Shown here: piece by piece, positions 52,007 to 57,628 of the stretch | How positions within the stretch are numbered: position 1 is the stretch's first letter | How the letters are laid out: every line of letters begins with the position of its first letter | Origin: an uncultured Candidatus Saccharibacteria bacterium | GTDB taxonomy: Bacteria > Patescibacteriota > Minisyncoccia > Phycocordibacterales > CAIRYW01 | DNA length: 57,628 nt | NCBI GenBank assembly: GCA_964554765.1 | Contig: CAZKPS010000002.1 | Location: forward strand, 63,808 to 121,435 | Direction: 5' to 3' | Made by a program: the position numbers and the translations under genes | Notes under the pieces: model-generated | Told to the model about the DNA's origin: nothing | The model's database searches: none | Seen by the model: only the letters and a program-made list of their open reading frames with translations

Positions 52007-53059
52007 TTATACCTCAGTTGGCAGTACGAGACCCAGAGCTGTTGCATACGAAAGGGAGTCTTCAAAAGAAATCTCGGGCACTGTGTCTTTATAATAATCA
52101 ATATTGGTCCAAACATTCGATATTTCAACAGGCATTTTGAGAGACGAGGAGAGATAGTCAGCAAATCCAGGAATCGCAGCGTCTTTACCGCAAAGAATTA
52201 TCTTTTGAACTGGAGACCCTCCTCCATTTGTTTGCTTTATCCAGTATGCCGAAACACGTAATATTTCATCTCGAAGAACAGATATAGTCGAAGCGAGTCC
52301 TGTTGCGAATGACTCACCATCGCCCGTTGTCTTAAACAGACCTTCCTTGTACTTAATCTTGCGCGCTTCTTCAATATCAACCCCAAATTGCTTTTGAATC
52401 GCACTTGTAAGTTGTGCTCCTCCAAAGCTTGTTGTGGAACTGAACTGTACAAACCCATATTCCACAACACCCAGCATTGTCTTCTCTCGAGAGAGGTACA
52501 CAAGCAAATGAGATCCGACATAATTTCTCTCAACAATTGATCTCGAAAGTGCCCCCGATTCAACCATATATGATACCGCCACCATACCACACTCTTCGAG
52601 AATGGAATTATATTTGTTTATGACATCGCGAGAGACCACAGACACTACTGCTATCTTTATATCCTTTTTAGGAAGAATATAATAATCAAATAGCGCTTCA
52701 GTGTCTTGAATAGGAACATTTTCCTCGAGATGAAATTCGATGTTGTTACGAATTTCTTGTGAAGTATCTCCTGTTACCTCCATTGTAAAAAGATATGTCT
52801 CTTCTTCTGGTAGTGACATTTTTACATAGGTAATACCTTCAGTTCGTTTTATTTCTTTAAGTACATTTTTAAGAGATTCATTACTCAGAACGCTCTCATT
52901 AGGCTCGAAAGCTCTTTTCCCGTATCGCCCAAGTTTAAAACTTTCTCCTGTACTTTGGAGCTCTGCAAAATGCAATGACTCTCGACCAATATCGAGACCC
53001 ACATAAGAAAATTTTAAGAATCGTGGTGTAGGAAAAAATTCAAAAATCTTTTTAAACAT
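52007..53059 (-). CDS. pilM: PilM-like type IV pilus assembly protein (actin-like ATPase fold)
   Basis: YVGLDIGRESLHFAEL... Start moved to ATG 53057-53059, because the track ORF extension runs through the conserved hairpin. Confidence 0.6.
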   Translation of the reverse strand: MFKKIFEFFPTPRFLKFSYVGLDIGRESLHFAELQSTGESFKLGRYGKRAFEPNESVLSNESLKNVLKEIKRTEGITYVKMSLPEEETYLFTMEVTGDTSQEIRNNIEFHLEENVPIQDTEALFDYYILPKKDIKIAVVSVVSRDVINKYNSILEECGMVAVSYMVESGALSRSIVERNYVGSHLLVYLSREKTMLGVVEYGFVQFSSTTSFGGAQLTSAIQKQFGVDIEEARKIKYKEGLFKTTGDGESFATGLASTISVLRDEILRVSAYWIKQTNGGGSPVQKIILCGKDAAIPGFADYLSSSLKMPVEISNVWTNIDYYKDTVPEISFEDSLSYATALGLVLPTEV

Positions 53060-53104
53060 TAGTCTAATTATATAGCGAAAGAACAAAATAATGAATAGGA
53101 AAAT

Positions 53105-53137
53105 AAAATGCACGGCGCCATAGGTGCCGTGCATTTT
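53105..53137. terminator. GC-core palindromic hairpin family, copy 4 (variant)
   Basis: aaaatgcacggcgccataggtgccgtgcatttt. Confidence 0.6.
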
Positions 53138-53161: not shown

Positions 53162-53548
53162 TTAGTTCGCTTTTGTCCCCTCCTCTACCGCATCATCAGC
53201 TTTGAGAAGTGAAAACGGCTTGTCTCCACCACCGAGAGCAAAAAGCATTCCATTACTCTCAAGTCCCATCATCTTTCGCGGAGCAAGATTTGTGACGAAC
53301 ATACATTTCTGCCCTACTAAAACCTGTTCATCTGGAAAATACTTTTGAATCCCAGAGAGAATTTGTCGCGGACCAGACTCTTCTTTAAAATCCACCTTGA
53401 GCTTGAGAAGCTTATCTGACCCTTCGATTTTTTCTGCACTAAGAATTTTGCCCAAAGTCACTTCAATCTTTTTAAGATCATCAATAGATATCTTTGGATC
53501 CTCTTTTATTTCTACCACCTTCTCTTCTACTTTTATTTCGTCTGACAT
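53162..53548 (-). CDS. tRNA-binding domain protein (CsaA/Trbp111/EMAP-II-like)
   Basis: GKILSAEKIEGSDKLLKLKVDF..RQILSGIQKYF..VTNLAPRKMMGLESNGML. Confidence 0.8.
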   Translation of the reverse strand: MSDEIKVEEKVVEIKEDPKISIDDLKKIEVTLGKILSAEKIEGSDKLLKLKVDFKEESGPRQILSGIQKYFPDEQVLVGQKCMFVTNLAPRKMMGLESNGMLFALGGGDKPFSLLKADDAVEEGTKAN

Positions 53549-53553
53549 GCGTA

Positions 53554-53940
53554 TTATTTTAAATTTTTTAATTGATCAATATATGATTGTAAGATTATGG
53601 CTGCTGCCGATGCATCAATCATATCACTATCTCCCTGAATCCTTGTCGCCCCATAGGTACTGTAGAATTCTGGCTGGAGTACCACTTCAACACTCTCTGC
53701 TTCTAATAGTCCCTTGAACTTTCGAATACCTTCCATAATAGCATTCTCGGTCCCATCGAGATTTTTACTCTCACCCAAGACCACTTTACTGATTTTTTCT
53801 TTTTTTACAATCTCGAGAACAGTCTTCAAGAGGTCTTTGTCATTATTCATAACCGAACGAGGAAACGCCATACCACTGTCTGTATCTGCAGTGGCAAGCC
53901 CTACCCTCTTTGACCCATAATCTATCCCTAGGATTTTCAT
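53554..53940 (-). CDS. ruvX: Holliday junction resolvase-like RuvX/YqgF
   Basis: MKILGIDYGSKRVGLA.. Confidence 0.85.
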   Translation of the reverse strand: MKILGIDYGSKRVGLATADTDSGMAFPRSVMNNDKDLLKTVLEIVKKEKISKVVLGESKNLDGTENAIMEGIRKFKGLLEAESVEVVLQPEFYSTYGATRIQGDSDMIDASAAAIILQSYIDQLKNLK

Positions 53941-54097: not shown

Positions 54098-54185
54098 GGA
54101 GGAGTCGCATAGTGGTTTAGTGCACCTGTCTTGAAAACAGGAGTGCCGCAAGGTACCGCGAGTTCGAATCTCGCCTCCTCCGCCA
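54098..54185 (+). tRNA. tRNA-Ser (UGA) with a long variable arm; its 3' end is the integration site of the nirK element
   Basis: GGAGGAG..CCUGU-CUUGAAA-ACAGG..variable arm GAGUGCCGCAAGGUACCGC..GCGAG-UUCGAAU-CUCGC-CUCCUCC-G-CCA. Confidence 0.85.
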
Positions 54186-55628
54186 GTTAGGAAATGAAGT
54201 CATTGGCTCGCCCGCTACGCGGGCTCGCCAGCCGTTTTTCGCCGAAAATTCAAGCCGTTTTGAATTCAGCATAAAGTTCGAGCCGACATTTTTGAGAAAT
54301 GCGCGGATTTGCGTTTTGTCGCCTTGCGACAAAAGAATTTTGGCTTGGCTGCTCAATAAAATCACTTCTCGCATCGGTTCGAGCCAATTATTTCCCTTTT
54401 GTTCAAAATCTCTGATTTCTTGGTCAATATCGGCTTTCTCACCCAACAGTTTTGCTTTCTTTGCTTGATACTCGTCCGGCGATATTCCTTTGCCATCAAT
54501 GTAGATATCGAGAAGCCGATCTATTTTCTGCTCCACTTCCGCTTTTCGGGTTTTCAGATTTTGAACAAAAGAAACACCCTCATTTTGAATACTCGCTTTT
54601 TCGCGGTCTAACTCGGCAAGCATATTGTCTCGCCAGTCATCGGGAATAGAAACTTTTTGAATGACGGATTTCATCTGTTCAACAAGGGCTTCCTCGCGGA
54701 GATACTTTTCATCACAGGTTTGCTTTTTCTTGGTGCAACGATAGTAAATATGTCCCTTTTGGGTTTCGGCGGTAATGAGGCAACCGCACTTTCCGCATTT
54801 CATAAAGCCGGAAAAAGCAAACTCGTGTTTTCGCTTTCTCTTTTTCTTGCCCCGATTGTTCATTACTTGTTGAACAGCATCAAAAAGTTTCTTAGAAATA
54901 ATTGGCTCGTGGCTTCCTTCATATAGCTCGCCGTTGAAGCGGAAAGTTCCGTAGTAAAAGGGATTTTTAAGCATTCGCTGGACACAGGAGGTGGAAAGAA
55001 CATTGCCTTTGTAGCTGTCCATTCCCGTATCCGCCAAAAACTGCTTGATATTTTTAAGCGTGTTGTCGCCGGTGGCGTAGAGTTCAAAACATTCTCTCAC
55101 CAACATCGATTTTTCTTTATCAAGGTCAATGCTCTTTGTTTTTGAATTGTTGAGATAGCCGAGTGGCGCAAACCCCGGCCATATTCCTTTTCGCAGTTTT
55201 TGGCGGTGGCCTCGTTTGATGTTTTCACTTAAATTGTCCACATAGTATTTGCTCTGACCAAAGGCAATGTTCAGCATAAATTTCCCTTGTGGCGTGCTAT
55301 CAAACCAAAATGTAGGAAATTTGAGGTCTTGGATTTTTCCTGTGTCCAGCAGATAAATAATCTTTCCGCCGTCTATGGAGTTGCGAGCTAATCTGTCCGG
55401 GTGCCAAGCCAAAATTCCGCCGGCTTCTCCGGCGCAAATCCGATCCAGCATTTCTGCGAAAATCTTTCGCCCAGGTTCTTTGGCAGTTTGCGCCTCGCTC
55501 AGCGAGGCGACGATTTCAAGTTTTTCTTTGGCGGCAAATTCTTTCAATTCAGAAATCTGGGACTCAAGAGACATCACTTGTCTTTCTTCGCTCTCGGTAG
55601 ATTTTCGTGTGTAGATAAAGTATTTCAT
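54117..55628 (-). CDS. Large serine recombinase (integrase); the last 20 codons are read from tRNA-Ser antisense sequence
   Basis: YTRKSTESEERQVMSLESQ..ILAWHPDRLARN; zinc ribbon CGKCGC..YYRC. Homologous to the recombinase at 40915..42501. Confidence 0.9.
   Translation of the reverse strand: MKYFIYTRKSTESEERQVMSLESQISELKEFAAKEKLEIVASLSEAQTAKEPGRKIFAEMLDRICAGEAGGILAWHPDRLARNSIDGGKIIYLLDTGKIQDLKFPTFWFDSTPQGKFMLNIAFGQSKYYVDNLSENIKRGHRQKLRKGIWPGFAPLGYLNNSKTKSIDLDKEKSMLVRECFELYATGDNTLKNIKQFLADTGMDSYKGNVLSTSCVQRMLKNPFYYGTFRFNGELYEGSHEPIISKKLFDAVQQVMNNRGKKKRKRKHEFAFSGFMKCGKCGCLITAETQKGHIYYRCTKKKQTCDEKYLREEALVEQMKSVIQKVSIPDDWRDNMLAELDREKASIQNEGVSFVQNLKTRKAEVEQKIDRLLDIYIDGKGISPDEYQAKKAKLLGEKADIDQEIRDFEQKGNNWLEPMREVILLSSQAKILLSQGDKTQIRAFLKNVGSNFMLNSKRLEFSAKNGWRARVAGEPMTSFPNWRRRRDSNSRYLAALLFSRQVH
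54180..54269. repeat. 90-bp arm (P') at the left end of the tRNA-Ser element; a perfect inverted copy is at 55660-55749
   Basis: ccgccagttaggaaatgaagtcattggctcgcccgctacgcgggctcgccagccgtttttcgccgaaaattcaagccgttttgaattcag, compared by eye with its reverse complement. Confidence 0.9.
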
Positions 55629-55659
55629 AAAGATTTAGAAAAGCCCGCTTCTGGCCTTA

Positions 55660-55749
55660 CTGAATTCAAAACGGCTTGAATTTTCGGCGAAAAACGGCTG
55701 GCGAGCCCGCGTAGCGGGCGAGCCAATGACTTCATTTCCTAACTGGCGG
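55660..55749. repeat. Inverted copy of the 90-bp P' arm, 31 nt upstream of the recombinase start
   Basis: Reverse complement of 54180-54269. Confidence 0.9.
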
Positions 55750-55851
55750 TGTCTGTTTGAAAATATCCGAACGGAACTCTCTGGGCTCGGCGGGCGGAAT
55801 TCCCCCCACACCCCCCTTCCGCCCGCCTCGCCTTGAACCGGAGCGGAAAGG
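55746..55851. repeat. Inverted copy of the 106-bp P arm; shares the 4-bp core gcgg with the preceding repeat
   Basis: gcggtgtctgtttgaaaatatccgaacggaactctctgggctcggcgggcggaattccccccacaccccccttccgcccgcctcgccttgaaccggagcggaaagg is the reverse complement of 57472-57577. Confidence 0.9.
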
Positions 55852-55944
55852 CAAACTGCCAAAGAATCTTTCAAAAATGTCGGCTCGAACTTTATGAAGA
55901 CCAGAAGCAGGCTTTTCTTTTCTGAATTGAAATAAATCATAAAA

Positions 55945-55994
55945 CTTGATAGTATGATACTGATAGTGTATCAAATCATTTTAATACTATCAAG
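55945..55994. promoter_or_regulatory. Nested inverted repeats upstream of the XRE gene (candidate operator)
   Basis: cttgatagtat..(gatac-tgatagt-gtatc)..atactatcaag, 12 nt before ATG 56006. Confidence 0.4.
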
Positions 55995-56005
55995 ATAATG
56001 AAAGT

Positions 56006-56212
56006 ATGGCAACTGCAAATAACATTGGTGAAAATATAAAGAAACACAGGACTAAATTGGGGCTTTCGCAAGAAGATTTTGCCCAAAAGTCCGGTGTGAA
56101 ATACACGACCCTTACTAAAATTGAAAGTGGGGTTATTAAAACACCGTCTGTTGTTTTGGTGGCAAGAATTGCCAAAGCTCTTAGCATTTCAATAGAAGAA
56201 TTGATAAAATAA
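56006..56212 (+). CDS. XRE-family HTH regulator
   Basis: LGLSQEDFAQKSGVKYTTLTKIESGVIKTPSVVLVARIAKALSISIEELI. Confidence 0.8.
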   Translation: MATANNIGENIKKHRTKLGLSQEDFAQKSGVKYTTLTKIESGVIKTPSVVLVARIAKALSISIEELIK

Positions 56213-56216
56213 AACT

Positions 56217-57440
56217 ATGGAATTATTTTCGTATCTTTGGCAGTACATTGTCCAGACGCTCGGTCTCTTCATCGCATTTGTGGCCGCGGCGGTCTTTATT
56301 TACATGGCGCTCAGGCGCATGCACTCGCGGTGGATTACGGCAGCGTTTGTTGCCATATTCTTAGGCGTTTCTGTCGCGTTTTACGTCCCAAATGGACTAC
56401 CCAACGCATTTCAATATCCTTTTTCCCTCACTACATTCGGGCCAAGCGAAGGCCCCGTGCTTCCATTTAAGAACGTCCTCCAGTTTTTCAAGAATTTCAA
56501 CTCTCTCGAGCGGGTACAAAACATCGCGAAGAACCCCGTCGACCTGCCACCGCCCGTCAACCGTTCGGAACCGCAGGTGGTAAAAATGGAACTCACCACA
56601 AAAGAAGTCATCGCTGATATCGCCCCGGGGGTTACGCTCAACTATTGGACGTTCAACGGCACCGTACCCGGGCCTTTCCTGCGCGCCCGCGAGGGTGACA
56701 CCATCGAACTCACGCTCAAAAACGATAAGACGAGCCTTCACACGCACAACATTGATCTCCATGCGGTGAACGGCCCAGGCGGAGGCGCCGTTGCGACGAA
56801 CGTGGAGCCAGGCGAATCAAAGACATTTCGCTTCAAGGCCCTTAACCCCGGCCTCTATGTGTATCACTGCGCGCATCCCAATGTACCGAGCCACATGACG
56901 CACGGGCTTTACGGGCTCATCCTCATCGAGCCGAAAGAAGGGCTGCCTCCGGTTGACAAGGAGTTCTACGTCATGCAGGGAGAGTTTTACACGTCGGGGT
57001 CTCTCGGCCGTAAAGGCCTACAACTCTTCGACGCGCAGGCGATGCTCGATGGCAAACCACAGTACGTCGTTTTCAACGGAAAGACTGGAGCACTCACGGG
57101 GGACACTATGAACGTAAAAGTTGGAGACACCGTTCGTCTTTATATAGGCAACGGCGGCGTGAACCTTATCTCAAACTTCCATGTTATCGGCGAGATTTTT
57201 GACAAAGTATACCGGGAGGGAGATATCGTGAGTCCTCCGGCAAGAAGTGTCCAGACCACACTCATTCCAGCAGGAGGAGCGACGGTCGTCGAGTTCAAGG
57301 CTGACTATCCGGGTAATTACATACTCGTCGACCACGCACTCGCTCGGATGGACAGGGGCGCTTGGGGAATATTGAAGGTCACCGGTGAAGCGGACTCGTC
57401 GATTTTCGACGGGAAGATCCAGGCTGGGCGTGGGCATTAA
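56217..57440 (+). CDS. nirK: Copper-containing nitrite reductase-like (NirK, two-cupredoxin-domain) protein with an N-terminal double TM anchor
   Basis: HTHNIDLHAVNGPGGG; LYVYHCAHPNVPSHMTHGLYGLILIEP (HC..H copper ligands); GC-rich relative to the backbone. Confidence 0.75.
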   Translation: MELFSYLWQYIVQTLGLFIAFVAAAVFIYMALRRMHSRWITAAFVAIFLGVSVAFYVPNGLPNAFQYPFSLTTFGPSEGPVLPFKNVLQFFKNFNSLERVQNIAKNPVDLPPPVNRSEPQVVKMELTTKEVIADIAPGVTLNYWTFNGTVPGPFLRAREGDTIELTLKNDKTSLHTHNIDLHAVNGPGGGAVATNVEPGESKTFRFKALNPGLYVYHCAHPNVPSHMTHGLYGLILIEPKEGLPPVDKEFYVMQGEFYTSGSLGRKGLQLFDAQAMLDGKPQYVVFNGKTGALTGDTMNVKVGDTVRLYIGNGGVNLISNFHVIGEIFDKVYREGDIVSPPARSVQTTLIPAGGATVVEFKADYPGNYILVDHALARMDRGAWGILKVTGEADSSIFDGKIQAGRGH

Positions 57441-57471
57441 ATAGGTTGCCGCCAAAAAAACTTGAAATCGT

Positions 57472-57577
57472 CCTTTCCGCTCCGGTTCAAGGCGAGGCGG
57501 GCGGAAGGGGGGTGTGGGGGGAATTCCGCCCGCCGAGCCCAGAGAGTTCCGTTCGGATATTTTCAAACAGACACCGC
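57472..57577. repeat. 106-bp arm (P) at the right end of the tRNA-Ser element
   Basis: Ends ..caaacagacaccgc, directly followed by the presumed native tRNA-Ser terminator. Confidence 0.9.
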
Positions 57578-57625
57578 AAAATTAAAAAATACCAAGGAAT
57601 TCCTTGGTATTTTTTAATTTTGCGG
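57574..57625 (+). terminator. 52-nt perfect palindrome; inferred to be the native tRNA-Ser terminator displaced by the insertion
   Basis: ccgcaaaattaaaaaataccaaggaattccttggtattttttaattttgcgg. It is followed by agg, which would complement the cct of the tRNA 3' end. Confidence 0.65.
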
Positions 57626-57628
57626 AGG

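Follow-up and report, generated by a model that had tools for sequence, protein, structure and literature searches.

Large serine integrases are, in the textbook description, machines that use one attP and work one way, and they are major tools of genome engineering. The prophages and islands of this group (A118/LI, SPbeta, phiC31 and Bxb1, together with CcrAB of SCCmec and XisF) were compared with an element that occupies the right end of a 57,628-nucleotide stretch of DNA (the window) from an uncultured Candidatus Saccharibacteria bacterium (contig CAZKPS010000002.1 of assembly GCA_964554765.1, positions 63,808 to 121,435). The element lies in a tRNA-Ser gene and consists of two modules, one with the gene for a large serine integrase and one with a cargo formed by an XRE-type regulator and the nitrite reductase gene nirK. 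As in the described group, the recombinase has three domains, the common core is short, a motif of attP lies ~5 bp farther outward than in attB, and integration yields attL and attR. Unlike those systems, which have one attP and hold only attL and attR once integrated, the element carries a second complete attP, inverted, between its modules; moreover, only its left half-sites are conserved, its integrase open reading frame (ORF) ends at the crossover, it has no candidate directionality factor, and it measures only 3.4 kb. One attP per element, the criterion of the class, describes neither the element in the window nor 51 of 59 relatives.

Partial likenesses are found in other systems. In the Hin/hix H segment of Salmonella, as in Gin, Cin and Pin, a serine recombinase gene also lies inside a segment with inverted sites, and inversion alters what a flanking promoter reads; those systems have a small invertase with a C-terminal helix-turn-helix (HTH), 26-bp sites, a Fis enhancer and frequent switching, whereas here the integrase is large, one site is attL and the other attP, and one orientation is strongly dominant. 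The res site between tnpA and tnpR of Tn3 and gamma-delta is likewise a serine-recombinase site between divergent genes, and the recombinase can repress its own promoter there, as may be the case here, but res is a resolution site with three subsites that acts as a direct repeat on cointegrates. The yeast 2-micron plasmid (FLP/FRT, 599-bp inverted repeats) and the UL/US segments of herpes simplex virus share the arrangement of two unique segments bracketed by inverted repeats, with four possible isomers, and in the 2-micron plasmid the recombinase gene lies inside one of the segments. FLP, however, is a tyrosine recombinase on a replicating plasmid with equimolar isomers, whereas the isomers here are skewed and there is no replication function. 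In the attP of CTXphi, with its two inverted dif-like sites, and in the attC of integrons, inverted att copies on the same strand can form a duplex site; the enzymes involved are tyrosine recombinases that exchange one strand pair, in contrast to the serine recombinase of this element. Insertion sequences and other transposons with terminal inverted repeats (TIRs), including IS607, differ in that the arms described here are att half-sites at the 3' end of a tRNA gene, and the IS607 model scored the integrase at 31.6 bits, against a cut-off of 110. Tycheposons, too, are small, target tRNA genes, carry modular cargo, form tandem arrays and have relatives that lack an integrase, and a minority of tycheposons use large serine recombinases (bioRxiv 10.1101/2020.12.28.424599); unlike the present element, they are mostly of the tyrosine-recombinase type, cyanobacterial and often equipped with replication genes, and no internal mirrored attP has been described in them. 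None of the compared systems has an internal mirrored attP with co-evolving gene fragments.

The internal site reproduces the joined ends of the element base for base. With P and P' for the two arms of the element and B and B' for the corresponding halves of the target, the order along the window is tRNA-Ser, P', integrase, inverted P·P', XRE-nirK, P and terminator (Table 1), and the reverse complement of positions 55660-55851 matched the outer P arm (57472-57577) joined to the outer P' arm (54184-54269) at 192 of 192 nt. The P' and P arms form inverted pairs of 90 and 106 nt, respectively, both at 100% identity, and their inner copies share GCGG, overlapping at 55746-55749. Neither repeat could be extended by one further base, and the chance expectation of such pairs in 4.6 kb was about 7e-48. 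The initial annotation had described these perfect repeats with their 4-bp core overlap, had read the joined ends as attP and the internal site as its full inverted copy, and had placed each module of a tRNA-Ser-targeting serine-integrase element between perfect inverted repeats; a repeat finder and a script, the logic of the half-sites, the protein domains and the attachment sites bear out this description. With a complete inverted attP inside, the element resolves into an integrase module between P' arms and a cargo module between P arms, and every non-coding part of it is present as an inverted pair on one strand. Shorter repeats complete the pattern. The copies u and u' (55637-55658 and 55897-55918) enclose an inner segment of 238 bp, and a perfect 17-nt palindrome (GCCTCGCTGAGCGAGGC) sits between the blocks n1 and q in the integrase gene. 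The left border of the cargo module, made of copies of q and Ks followed by u', reads as the integrase gene minus codons ~54-445, and its order is the same in relatives, with at least 95% identity to each element's own integrase.

The same architecture was found in other assemblies and in diverged relatives. An identical 4.6-kb structure (100%) is present in NODE_651 of ENA assembly ERZ15185866, which runs 127 nt past the window end, and seven or more additional assemblies contain the cargo module at 100% identity. One short contig (L007) is exactly the unique part between the arms and another (L006) ends 30 nt into both arms, the pattern that assemblers leave at perfect inverted repeats. In the contigs L003 and L004, the identical cargo module stands beside a different right flank with a TfoX_N gene, suggesting that the element has moved recently. 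Among relatives that differ in cargo and in tRNA-Ser isoacceptor, L009 (integrase 92% identical, tRNA-Ser gct) has pairs of 106 and 90 nt, L010 (80%) has pairs of 110 and 87 nt, and L013 (94%, tRNA-Ser gga) has a 90-nt pair; K with its inverted copy is present in these three and, in a wider census, in 26 elements. In species-representative genomes, a scan identified 80 loci whose integrases are 52-97% identical, almost all of them in metagenome-assembled genomes (MAGs) of Patescibacteria from different studies and various assemblers. Out of 88 integrase genes with a resolvable 3' end, 72 converge on the 3' end of a tRNA gene (Ser, Gln, Leu, Trp, Val, Arg, Tyr or Asn). An inverted copy of the 3' arm lies just upstream of the integrase start codon in 51 of the 59 genes with sufficient flank, so that the mirrored att structure which the initial annotation proposed to look for around homologous integrases is indeed present in other genomes. 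A second, abutting P pair surrounds an XRE and cargo module in 30 loci, and arm lengths across the family range from 77 to 156 nt. Loci with a P' pair alone were considered as "integrase-only" elements, but they still hold a full P half-site beside the inner P', which means that the outer P arm merely lies beyond the fetched flank. A directly oriented internal attP, the other arrangement of the inner 238-bp segment, was found in none of the 59 integrase loci, and L038 and L069 showed only small direct K-like matches.

The family is large. At E<=1e-20 it numbers at least 7,889 protein clusters, and species-representative genomes contain 468 or more loci. The 26-nt P half-site of the window recurs letter for letter in at least 120 metagenome contigs, and these have over 100 distinct right flanks. 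A phage origin was rejected, as IMG/VR held only seven weak relatives (<=50% identity), which indicates a cellular family. The window element is an intact member of this Patescibacteria family of miniature (~3-8 kb) integrative elements driven by a large serine integrase, and comparison of the loci indicates that the mirrored layout is the family norm. Its recurrence in independent assemblies and over deep divergence shows that it is neither a misassembly nor a one-off event. Full-text literature searches returned no description of a mirrored internal attP layout, in agreement with the earlier statement that none was known; as far as found, the mirrored architecture is real, conserved, undescribed and widespread in Patescibacteria.

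Alignment of 42 loci at the crossover revealed two conserved half-sites. The consensus of the element (P) side was gAaa...GtTCg.A.ttttT..aa.a.aca followed by the core, and that of the tRNA side was gGtTcgaatcC....c.c. followed by the core. Relative to the core, GTTCG (the T-loop in the tRNA) starts 5 nt farther out in P than in the tRNA. In large serine integrase sites, the outer (zinc-ribbon) motif lies ~5 bp farther from the centre in attP than in attB half-sites (PMC11722253), and the outward shift in P therefore identifies P as the attP-type half-site and the tRNA as the attB type. The P half-site evidently mimics the tRNA T-arm, with GTTCG moved 5 bp outward. The 5-bp offset rule fits the left half-sites only; P' and B' have no such motif, and the right half-sites B' differ wholly from locus to locus. 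P' is instead the coding sequence for the conserved integrase C-terminus (...KNVGSNFILKDKKFNFAPKIGWRALAEGEP..F.NWR) and ends at the core; in the window, the minus strand of the outer P' arm codes for ...GWRARVAGEP..FPNWR, and the C-terminal tail is conserved among homologues up to NWR at the core. In 20 relatives, the cores common to attL, the inner site and attR are 3-7 nt long and fall at tRNA positions ~71-74, with CCG(C) in tRNA-Ser, GCAC in tRNA-Leu and tRNA-Tyr, CAGC in tRNA-Gln and TCCAC in tRNA-Val. A palindromic crossover dinucleotide was examined as the origin of the mirrored junctions and rejected, no register being self-complementary in all cores. Judged by these half-sites, the internal site is a true attP, complete and inverted, and the two outer junctions are a true attL (tRNA·core·P') and a true attR (P·core·terminator).

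The repeats diverge between elements and stay alike within them. Between the window and L009 there were three differences in 106 nt and six in 90 nt, and L010 was far more diverged, while within elements the arms were 100% identical in 24 of 52 P' pairs and 13 of 30 P pairs, with medians of 99% for both and a tail down to 89%. No tie between arm divergence and integrase decay could be established, nearly all integrase ORFs being intact at any arm identity. Similarity within elements and divergence between them also mark the short copies of integrase sequence at the borders of the cargo module, which correspond to codons ~47-53 (q) and ~446-455 (Ks) at the inner P arm and to codons ~29-41 (n1) at the outer P arm. 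These copies, 16-37 nt long and found in about 25 diverged elements, are 98-99% identical to their own integrase, vs 82-91% to the integrases of other elements, and the n1 copy (26 elements) has a mean identity of 99.3% to its own integrase. Ks is contiguous with u' in the cargo module, and n1, the palindrome and q are contiguous in the integrase gene, so each module holds the joined ends of the other. We regard this as the main unexplained fact about the element. We found no series of standard attP x attB reactions that would lead from simple elements to this structure.

Tandem arrays were found in several contigs. In L215 two full elements stand in tandem, the integrase of one running into the P arm of the next, and in L167, L109 and L098 integrase-less cassettes form direct arrays with P·core·P' between them; such arrays imply that the junction beside the tRNA is re-used as a target. 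Arrays of at least two complete elements were seen in L215 (1-9108), L214, L217 and L222, the last with an integrase that has cargo modules on both sides, and the array cargo included a TaqI-like restriction enzyme with its methylase, a DNA methylase, and LMWPc, DUF4145 and flavodoxin-like genes. Integrase tails reading into P ("..IRT.F..", ~12 of 120 listed) were considered as signs of circles or flips, but the contexts examined (three, plus L222) were tandem or mixed arrays.

Inversion of either module, which the initial annotation had suggested, does occur, although a freely reversible switch is not supported: flips are rare among the consensus assemblies and the flipped integrase appears to decay. 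L049 and L091 have a flipped integrase module, with the tRNA at the integrase 5' end, and L022, one of 30 loci, has a flipped cargo module. The tRNA was on the 5' side of the integrase at only these two loci, vs the 72 integrases that read into a tRNA, which shows that the two attP copies are not used equally and speaks against the earlier idea of integration through either copy. The flipped module of L049 (2564-4400), in tRNA-Trp, has two unlike P' arms, with the core CCGCCA, of the tRNA-Ser type, at the internal site and GTGCCA at the junction; these mixed cores suggest exchange between elements with different tRNA targets. In L218-L221 the order is tRNA·P'·u·integrase·Ks/u'·XRE·cargo·P, with the integrase tail gone, and in L188, L162, L181 and L129 it is tRNA·P'/u'·XRE·cargo·n1·P, with no integrase and with deletion end points that vary. 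The junctions of Ks with u' and of P' with u' are those expected after a flip, followed by deletion between the now direct repeats. P·core sites with room upstream comprised 25 that looked like simple integrase-less islands (S), 8 mirrored elements (W) and 5 arrays, and the 25 apparent islands sit behind a tRNA, almost always tRNA-Ser. Cassettes of the form tRNA-Ser·P'·XRE·cargo·P were seen in L188, L211, L162, L181, L184 and L129, and among contigs with the P half-site of the window, integrase-less cassettes and direct arrays were commoner than full elements. The integrase-less cassettes could be satellites mobilised in trans, or decay products. In L198 (locus ~1931-2400, + orientation) a small GIY-YIG nuclease-like ORF follows directly after P·core, where P' would be expected.

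The anatomy of the element is well supported and its mechanism partly so, while the homogenisation of the repeats is unexplained. We consider it plausible, if a little short of probable, that the internal attP is part of the control region, that the integrase acts on it, that it holds the two modules together, and that flips are rare and lead to decay. The internal attP would then serve as a working binding site for the integrase within the 380 bp of control region that separate the divergent genes for integrase and XRE. Promoter-like sites occurred only on the XRE side of the inner attP, and none between the inner P' arm and the integrase start codon, in a consensus scan that was not above shuffled background; the integrase transcript, from a leftward promoter beside XRE, would for this reason have to cross the internal attP, and integrase bound there could limit its own synthesis, like resolvase at res. 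With B and P as the only conserved half-sites, the tRNA-proximal junction would stay attB-like and new copies would keep inserting there, giving tandem arrays. Recombination of this junction with the internal attP would invert the integrase module rather than excise it. A direct internal attP would let the integrase leave the cargo behind, whereas the inverted one would keep integrase and cargo as one unit, excisable only together. The dominant orientation would be the active one, a flipped integrase module losing its promoter. A flip would also place the Ks and u copies, until then inverted, in direct orientation, and deletions between them may account for the derivatives with a truncated integrase (A2) or none (S), which are frequent in metagenomes.

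Several points weigh against this account. Integrase binding, autoregulation and the promoter assignment are all inferences, the promoter scan being no better than shuffled sequence. A role in regulation or linkage needs an attP of ~50 bp, which accounts neither for perfect copies of 90 and 106 nt nor for integrase fragments of 16-37 nt at the cargo borders that track their own integrase. Canonical large serine integrases do not recombine attL with attP, and it is by extrapolation from the arrays that attL is treated here as attB-like. The cargo, between two P-type sites, was found flipped once (L022), which homologous recombination fits equally well or better. A circular form would have two identical attP, yet alternative integration products are near absent, and neither the force that keeps arms and border copies identical nor the dominance of one isomer is accounted for.

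Other explanations address some of these points. The internal copy may matter only as a cis-regulatory leader of the integrase, as RNA or DNA, with any recombination there being incidental, an explanation that we hold to be unlikely; such a leader, starting at the leftward promoter, would run through the reverse complement of u', K, the reverse complement of q, P and P', segments that are antisense to three parts of the integrase ORF itself and to its ribosome-binding region. This would agree with the lack of a promoter-like site from the inner P' arm to the integrase start codon, with K and the reverse complement of q being the best-conserved blocks of the control region, with the co-variation of the copies with their own integrase, as paired RNA segments would show, and with the hairpin of P' (GC-rich and followed by T5), in which the window and L010 differ by a compensatory change. 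It leaves the n1 copy and the outer P arm outside the transcript in the integrated state, and RNA pairing, which allows G-U pairs, does not demand 100% identity of DNA; the conservation of P' follows from its coding role as well. Homologous recombination by the host on the inverted repeats, isomerising the element in the manner of herpesvirus genomes or the yeast 2-micron plasmid and homogenising its arms by gene conversion, with an integrase inactive at the internal site, would explain why the arms stay near-identical and why both modules are inverted at low frequency (L049, L091 and L022). It should nevertheless give equal isomers, whereas one dominates (72 vs 2, and one flipped cargo in 30); the repeat boundaries match the integrase core and the att half-sites to the base, and border copies of 16-37 nt are too short for RecA-driven conversion, which makes this explanation very doubtful.

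Natural transformation is the assumed main route of DNA entry for these bacteria. A further, rather improbable explanation is that a single strand, after natural transformation or on the lagging-strand template, pairs the element ends with the internal site into a 192-bp duplex attP with the modules as loops, either as a duplex attP in the manner of CTXphi or as a splint for excisionase-free circularisation by host nucleases and ligase. All non-coding parts do form inverted pairs on one strand, the arms are far longer than a serine-integrase site needs, and most intact elements have perfect arms and a minority diverged ones, as if pairing were required for propagation. Furthermore, the joined ends of each module stand as one block inside the other (Ks·u' and n1·palindrome·q), the element has no excisionase-like gene, and pilus and competence-type genes adjoin it, with TfoX beside its second copy. 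The mirrored attP and the reciprocal copies of joined ends would in that case be an adaptation to single-stranded life in naturally competent Patescibacteria, a proposal to which we give little credence: the incoming donor strand would fold, rebuild the duplex attP and be trimmed and sealed to a precise circle without excisionase, and only perfectly matching repeats would propagate, resulting in concerted evolution. If true, this would be the first serine-integrase element acting on a folded single strand, and a new transformation route for islands. However, serine integrases cut both strands, so that recombination of a hairpin attP with attB would break the chromosome, nothing points to single-stranded forms, the six repeat pairs cross and cannot fold simultaneously, and the isomer bias is not accounted for. 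It is highly improbable that the locus represents two side-by-side transposon-like units, an integrase with 90-bp TIRs and a non-autonomous cargo with 106-bp TIRs, each moving by itself. Many assemblies hold single-module contigs of 1.6-1.9 kb, and the identical cargo module lies beside a different right flank in L003 and L004, but short contigs are expected from assemblers at perfect repeats (L007, L006), and the two arm types are halves of one attP that join the tRNA and the downstream DNA as attL and attR. Target duplications were not seen, nor was a cargo module with two P arms directly in a tRNA, or a module alone with both its arms at another kind of site. The suspicion in the initial annotation of an assembly chimera between integrated and excised forms, or of a one-off product of aberrant recombination, may practically be set aside. 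The window does end 51 nt past the element, and such repeats can mislead assemblers, but a second assembly, which extends beyond the end of the window, has the identical structure, the k-mers used (127 and 141) exceed the arms in length, meaning that the junctions are read-supported, and the same architecture is found in dozens of MAGs that differ in study, assembler, sequence, cargo and tRNA target, as the norm of a deeply diverged family.

In contrast to the one-attP picture of large serine integrases, this family routinely retains a second, inverted attP; it recognises the tRNA T-arm and its mimic, re-uses its own junction, forms arrays and sheds integrase-less cargo cassettes. Gene flow in Patescibacteria is poorly understood, and the family appears to be among the main carriers of accessory genes there, the cargo seen so far including nirK, restriction-modification genes and redox proteins. 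The co-evolution of the repeats, including the 16-37-nt integrase fragments, points to a step of the life cycle outside current serine-integrase models. The use of a universal tRNA motif as attB, with one specific half-site per site, may have practical use.

Table 1. Features of the integrative element and its target in the window (positions counted from the first nucleotide of the window).
Feature	Position	Strand	Evidence
tRNA-Ser(tga)	54098..54185	+	ARAGORN; Rfam tRNA, 61.7 bits
attB half-site B, specific: 3' end of tRNA-Ser (T-arm and acceptor)	within 54098..54185	+	B-side consensus gGtTcgaatcC, 42 loci
Large serine recombinase (integrase), 503 aa	54117..55628	-	ORF list; Pfam Resolvase, Recombinase and Zn_ribbon_recom
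Crossover core CCGC at attL, tRNA positions 71-74	54180..54183	+	Common to attL, inner site and attR
Outer P' arm, core and 86 nt	54180..54269	+	Inverted repeat I2 with 55660-55749, 90 nt, 100%
K: last strongly conserved integrase codons (KNVGSNFM), holding T-arm-like GTTCGAGCC	54270..54295	+	Inverted copy at 55871-55896, 26-nt perfect match
Integrase codons ~29-53: n1 55509-55544, 17-nt palindrome 55492-55508, q 55473-55491	55473..55544	-	Inverted repeats I9, I10 and I11; census
u: 22 nt directly upstream of the integrase start codon	55637..55658	+	Inverted repeat I7 with 55897-55918, 91%; conserved block in 25-element alignment
Internal complete attP (P·core·P'), inverted	55660..55851	-	192/192 vs joined ends; inner P' 55660-55749, inner P 55746-55851
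Left border of cargo module: q copy 55851-55869, Ks copy 55871-55896, u' 55897-55918	55851..55918	+	Repeats; relatives
Promoter-like hexamers, divergent	within 55927..56012	+ 55927-55955; - 55993-55965, 56012-55984	Consensus scan, not significant vs shuffles
Putative XRE operator: 20-nt inverted repeat	55945-55964 / 55975-55994		Inverted repeat I12; overlaps promoter-like hexamers; function inferred
XRE/Cro-type HTH regulator, 68 aa	56006..56212	+	Pfam HTH_3, 1.5e-15
NirK, copper-containing nitrite reductase, 407 aa	56217..57440	+	TIGR02376 (NCBIfam equivalog), 359 bits vs cut-off 296
n1 copy, integrase codons ~29-41, sense on + strand	57439..57471	+	Inverted repeats I10 and I11 (17 nt, 100%); adjoins outer P arm
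Outer P arm; proximal part GTTCGGATATTTTCAAACAGACA, specific attP half-site; distal part, GC-rich hairpin	57472..57577	+	Inverted repeat I1 with 55746-55851, 106 nt, 100%
attR core	57574-57577		
Displaced tRNA terminator B', 52-nt perfect palindrome	57574..57625		Inverted repeat I4
Second attB-like core, inverted, at far end of B'	57622-57625		

On the target side, the CCA end of the tRNA-Ser(tga) gene is provided by element sequence, and the empty site is predicted to read ..CCTCCTCCGC joined directly to AAAATTAAAA.. across the crossover. Past the window end, L001 (1-185) continues, in reverse complement, with what resembles another tRNA 3' end (tctcctccgc), including a T-arm-like ggcgagattcgaacgcc and a hairpin insert of 8 bp, and from this the second, inverted attB-like core at the far end of B' was recognised. 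This tRNA-like sequence was not called as a tmRNA or tRNA by ARAGORN or Rfam, because the contig ends. In the native target, the tRNA-Ser 3' end is followed by the 52-nt palindromic terminator, and the target as a whole is a perfect palindrome of roughly 62 nt (window 57574-57628 and L001 1-185).

The integrase was over the cut-offs of all three Pfam models (PF00239, PF07508 and PF13408), and its closest relatives of solved structure (PDB) are the SPbeta and A118 integrases. Its ORF has no stop before the crossover and continues through P' and the core into the tRNA gene. Excision by large serine integrases depends on a recombination directionality factor, and such factors share no sequence signature. 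The element contained no excisionase-like gene or candidate directionality factor, its other genes being only XRE and nirK, and no replication gene was found with the ORF list and Pfam; its location is chromosomal, in the tRNA gene. In the relatives examined, the XRE gene adjoins the inner site, as it does in the window. NirK carries a hydrophobic N-terminal stretch, and the GC content of the nirK cargo was 0.52-0.58 vs ~0.40 in the flanks. The host genes to the left of the tRNA encode RuvX (53554-53940), a protein with a tRNA-binding domain (53162-53548) and PilM-type pilus assembly proteins (52007-53134), consistent with an insertion site beside a competence or pilus locus.

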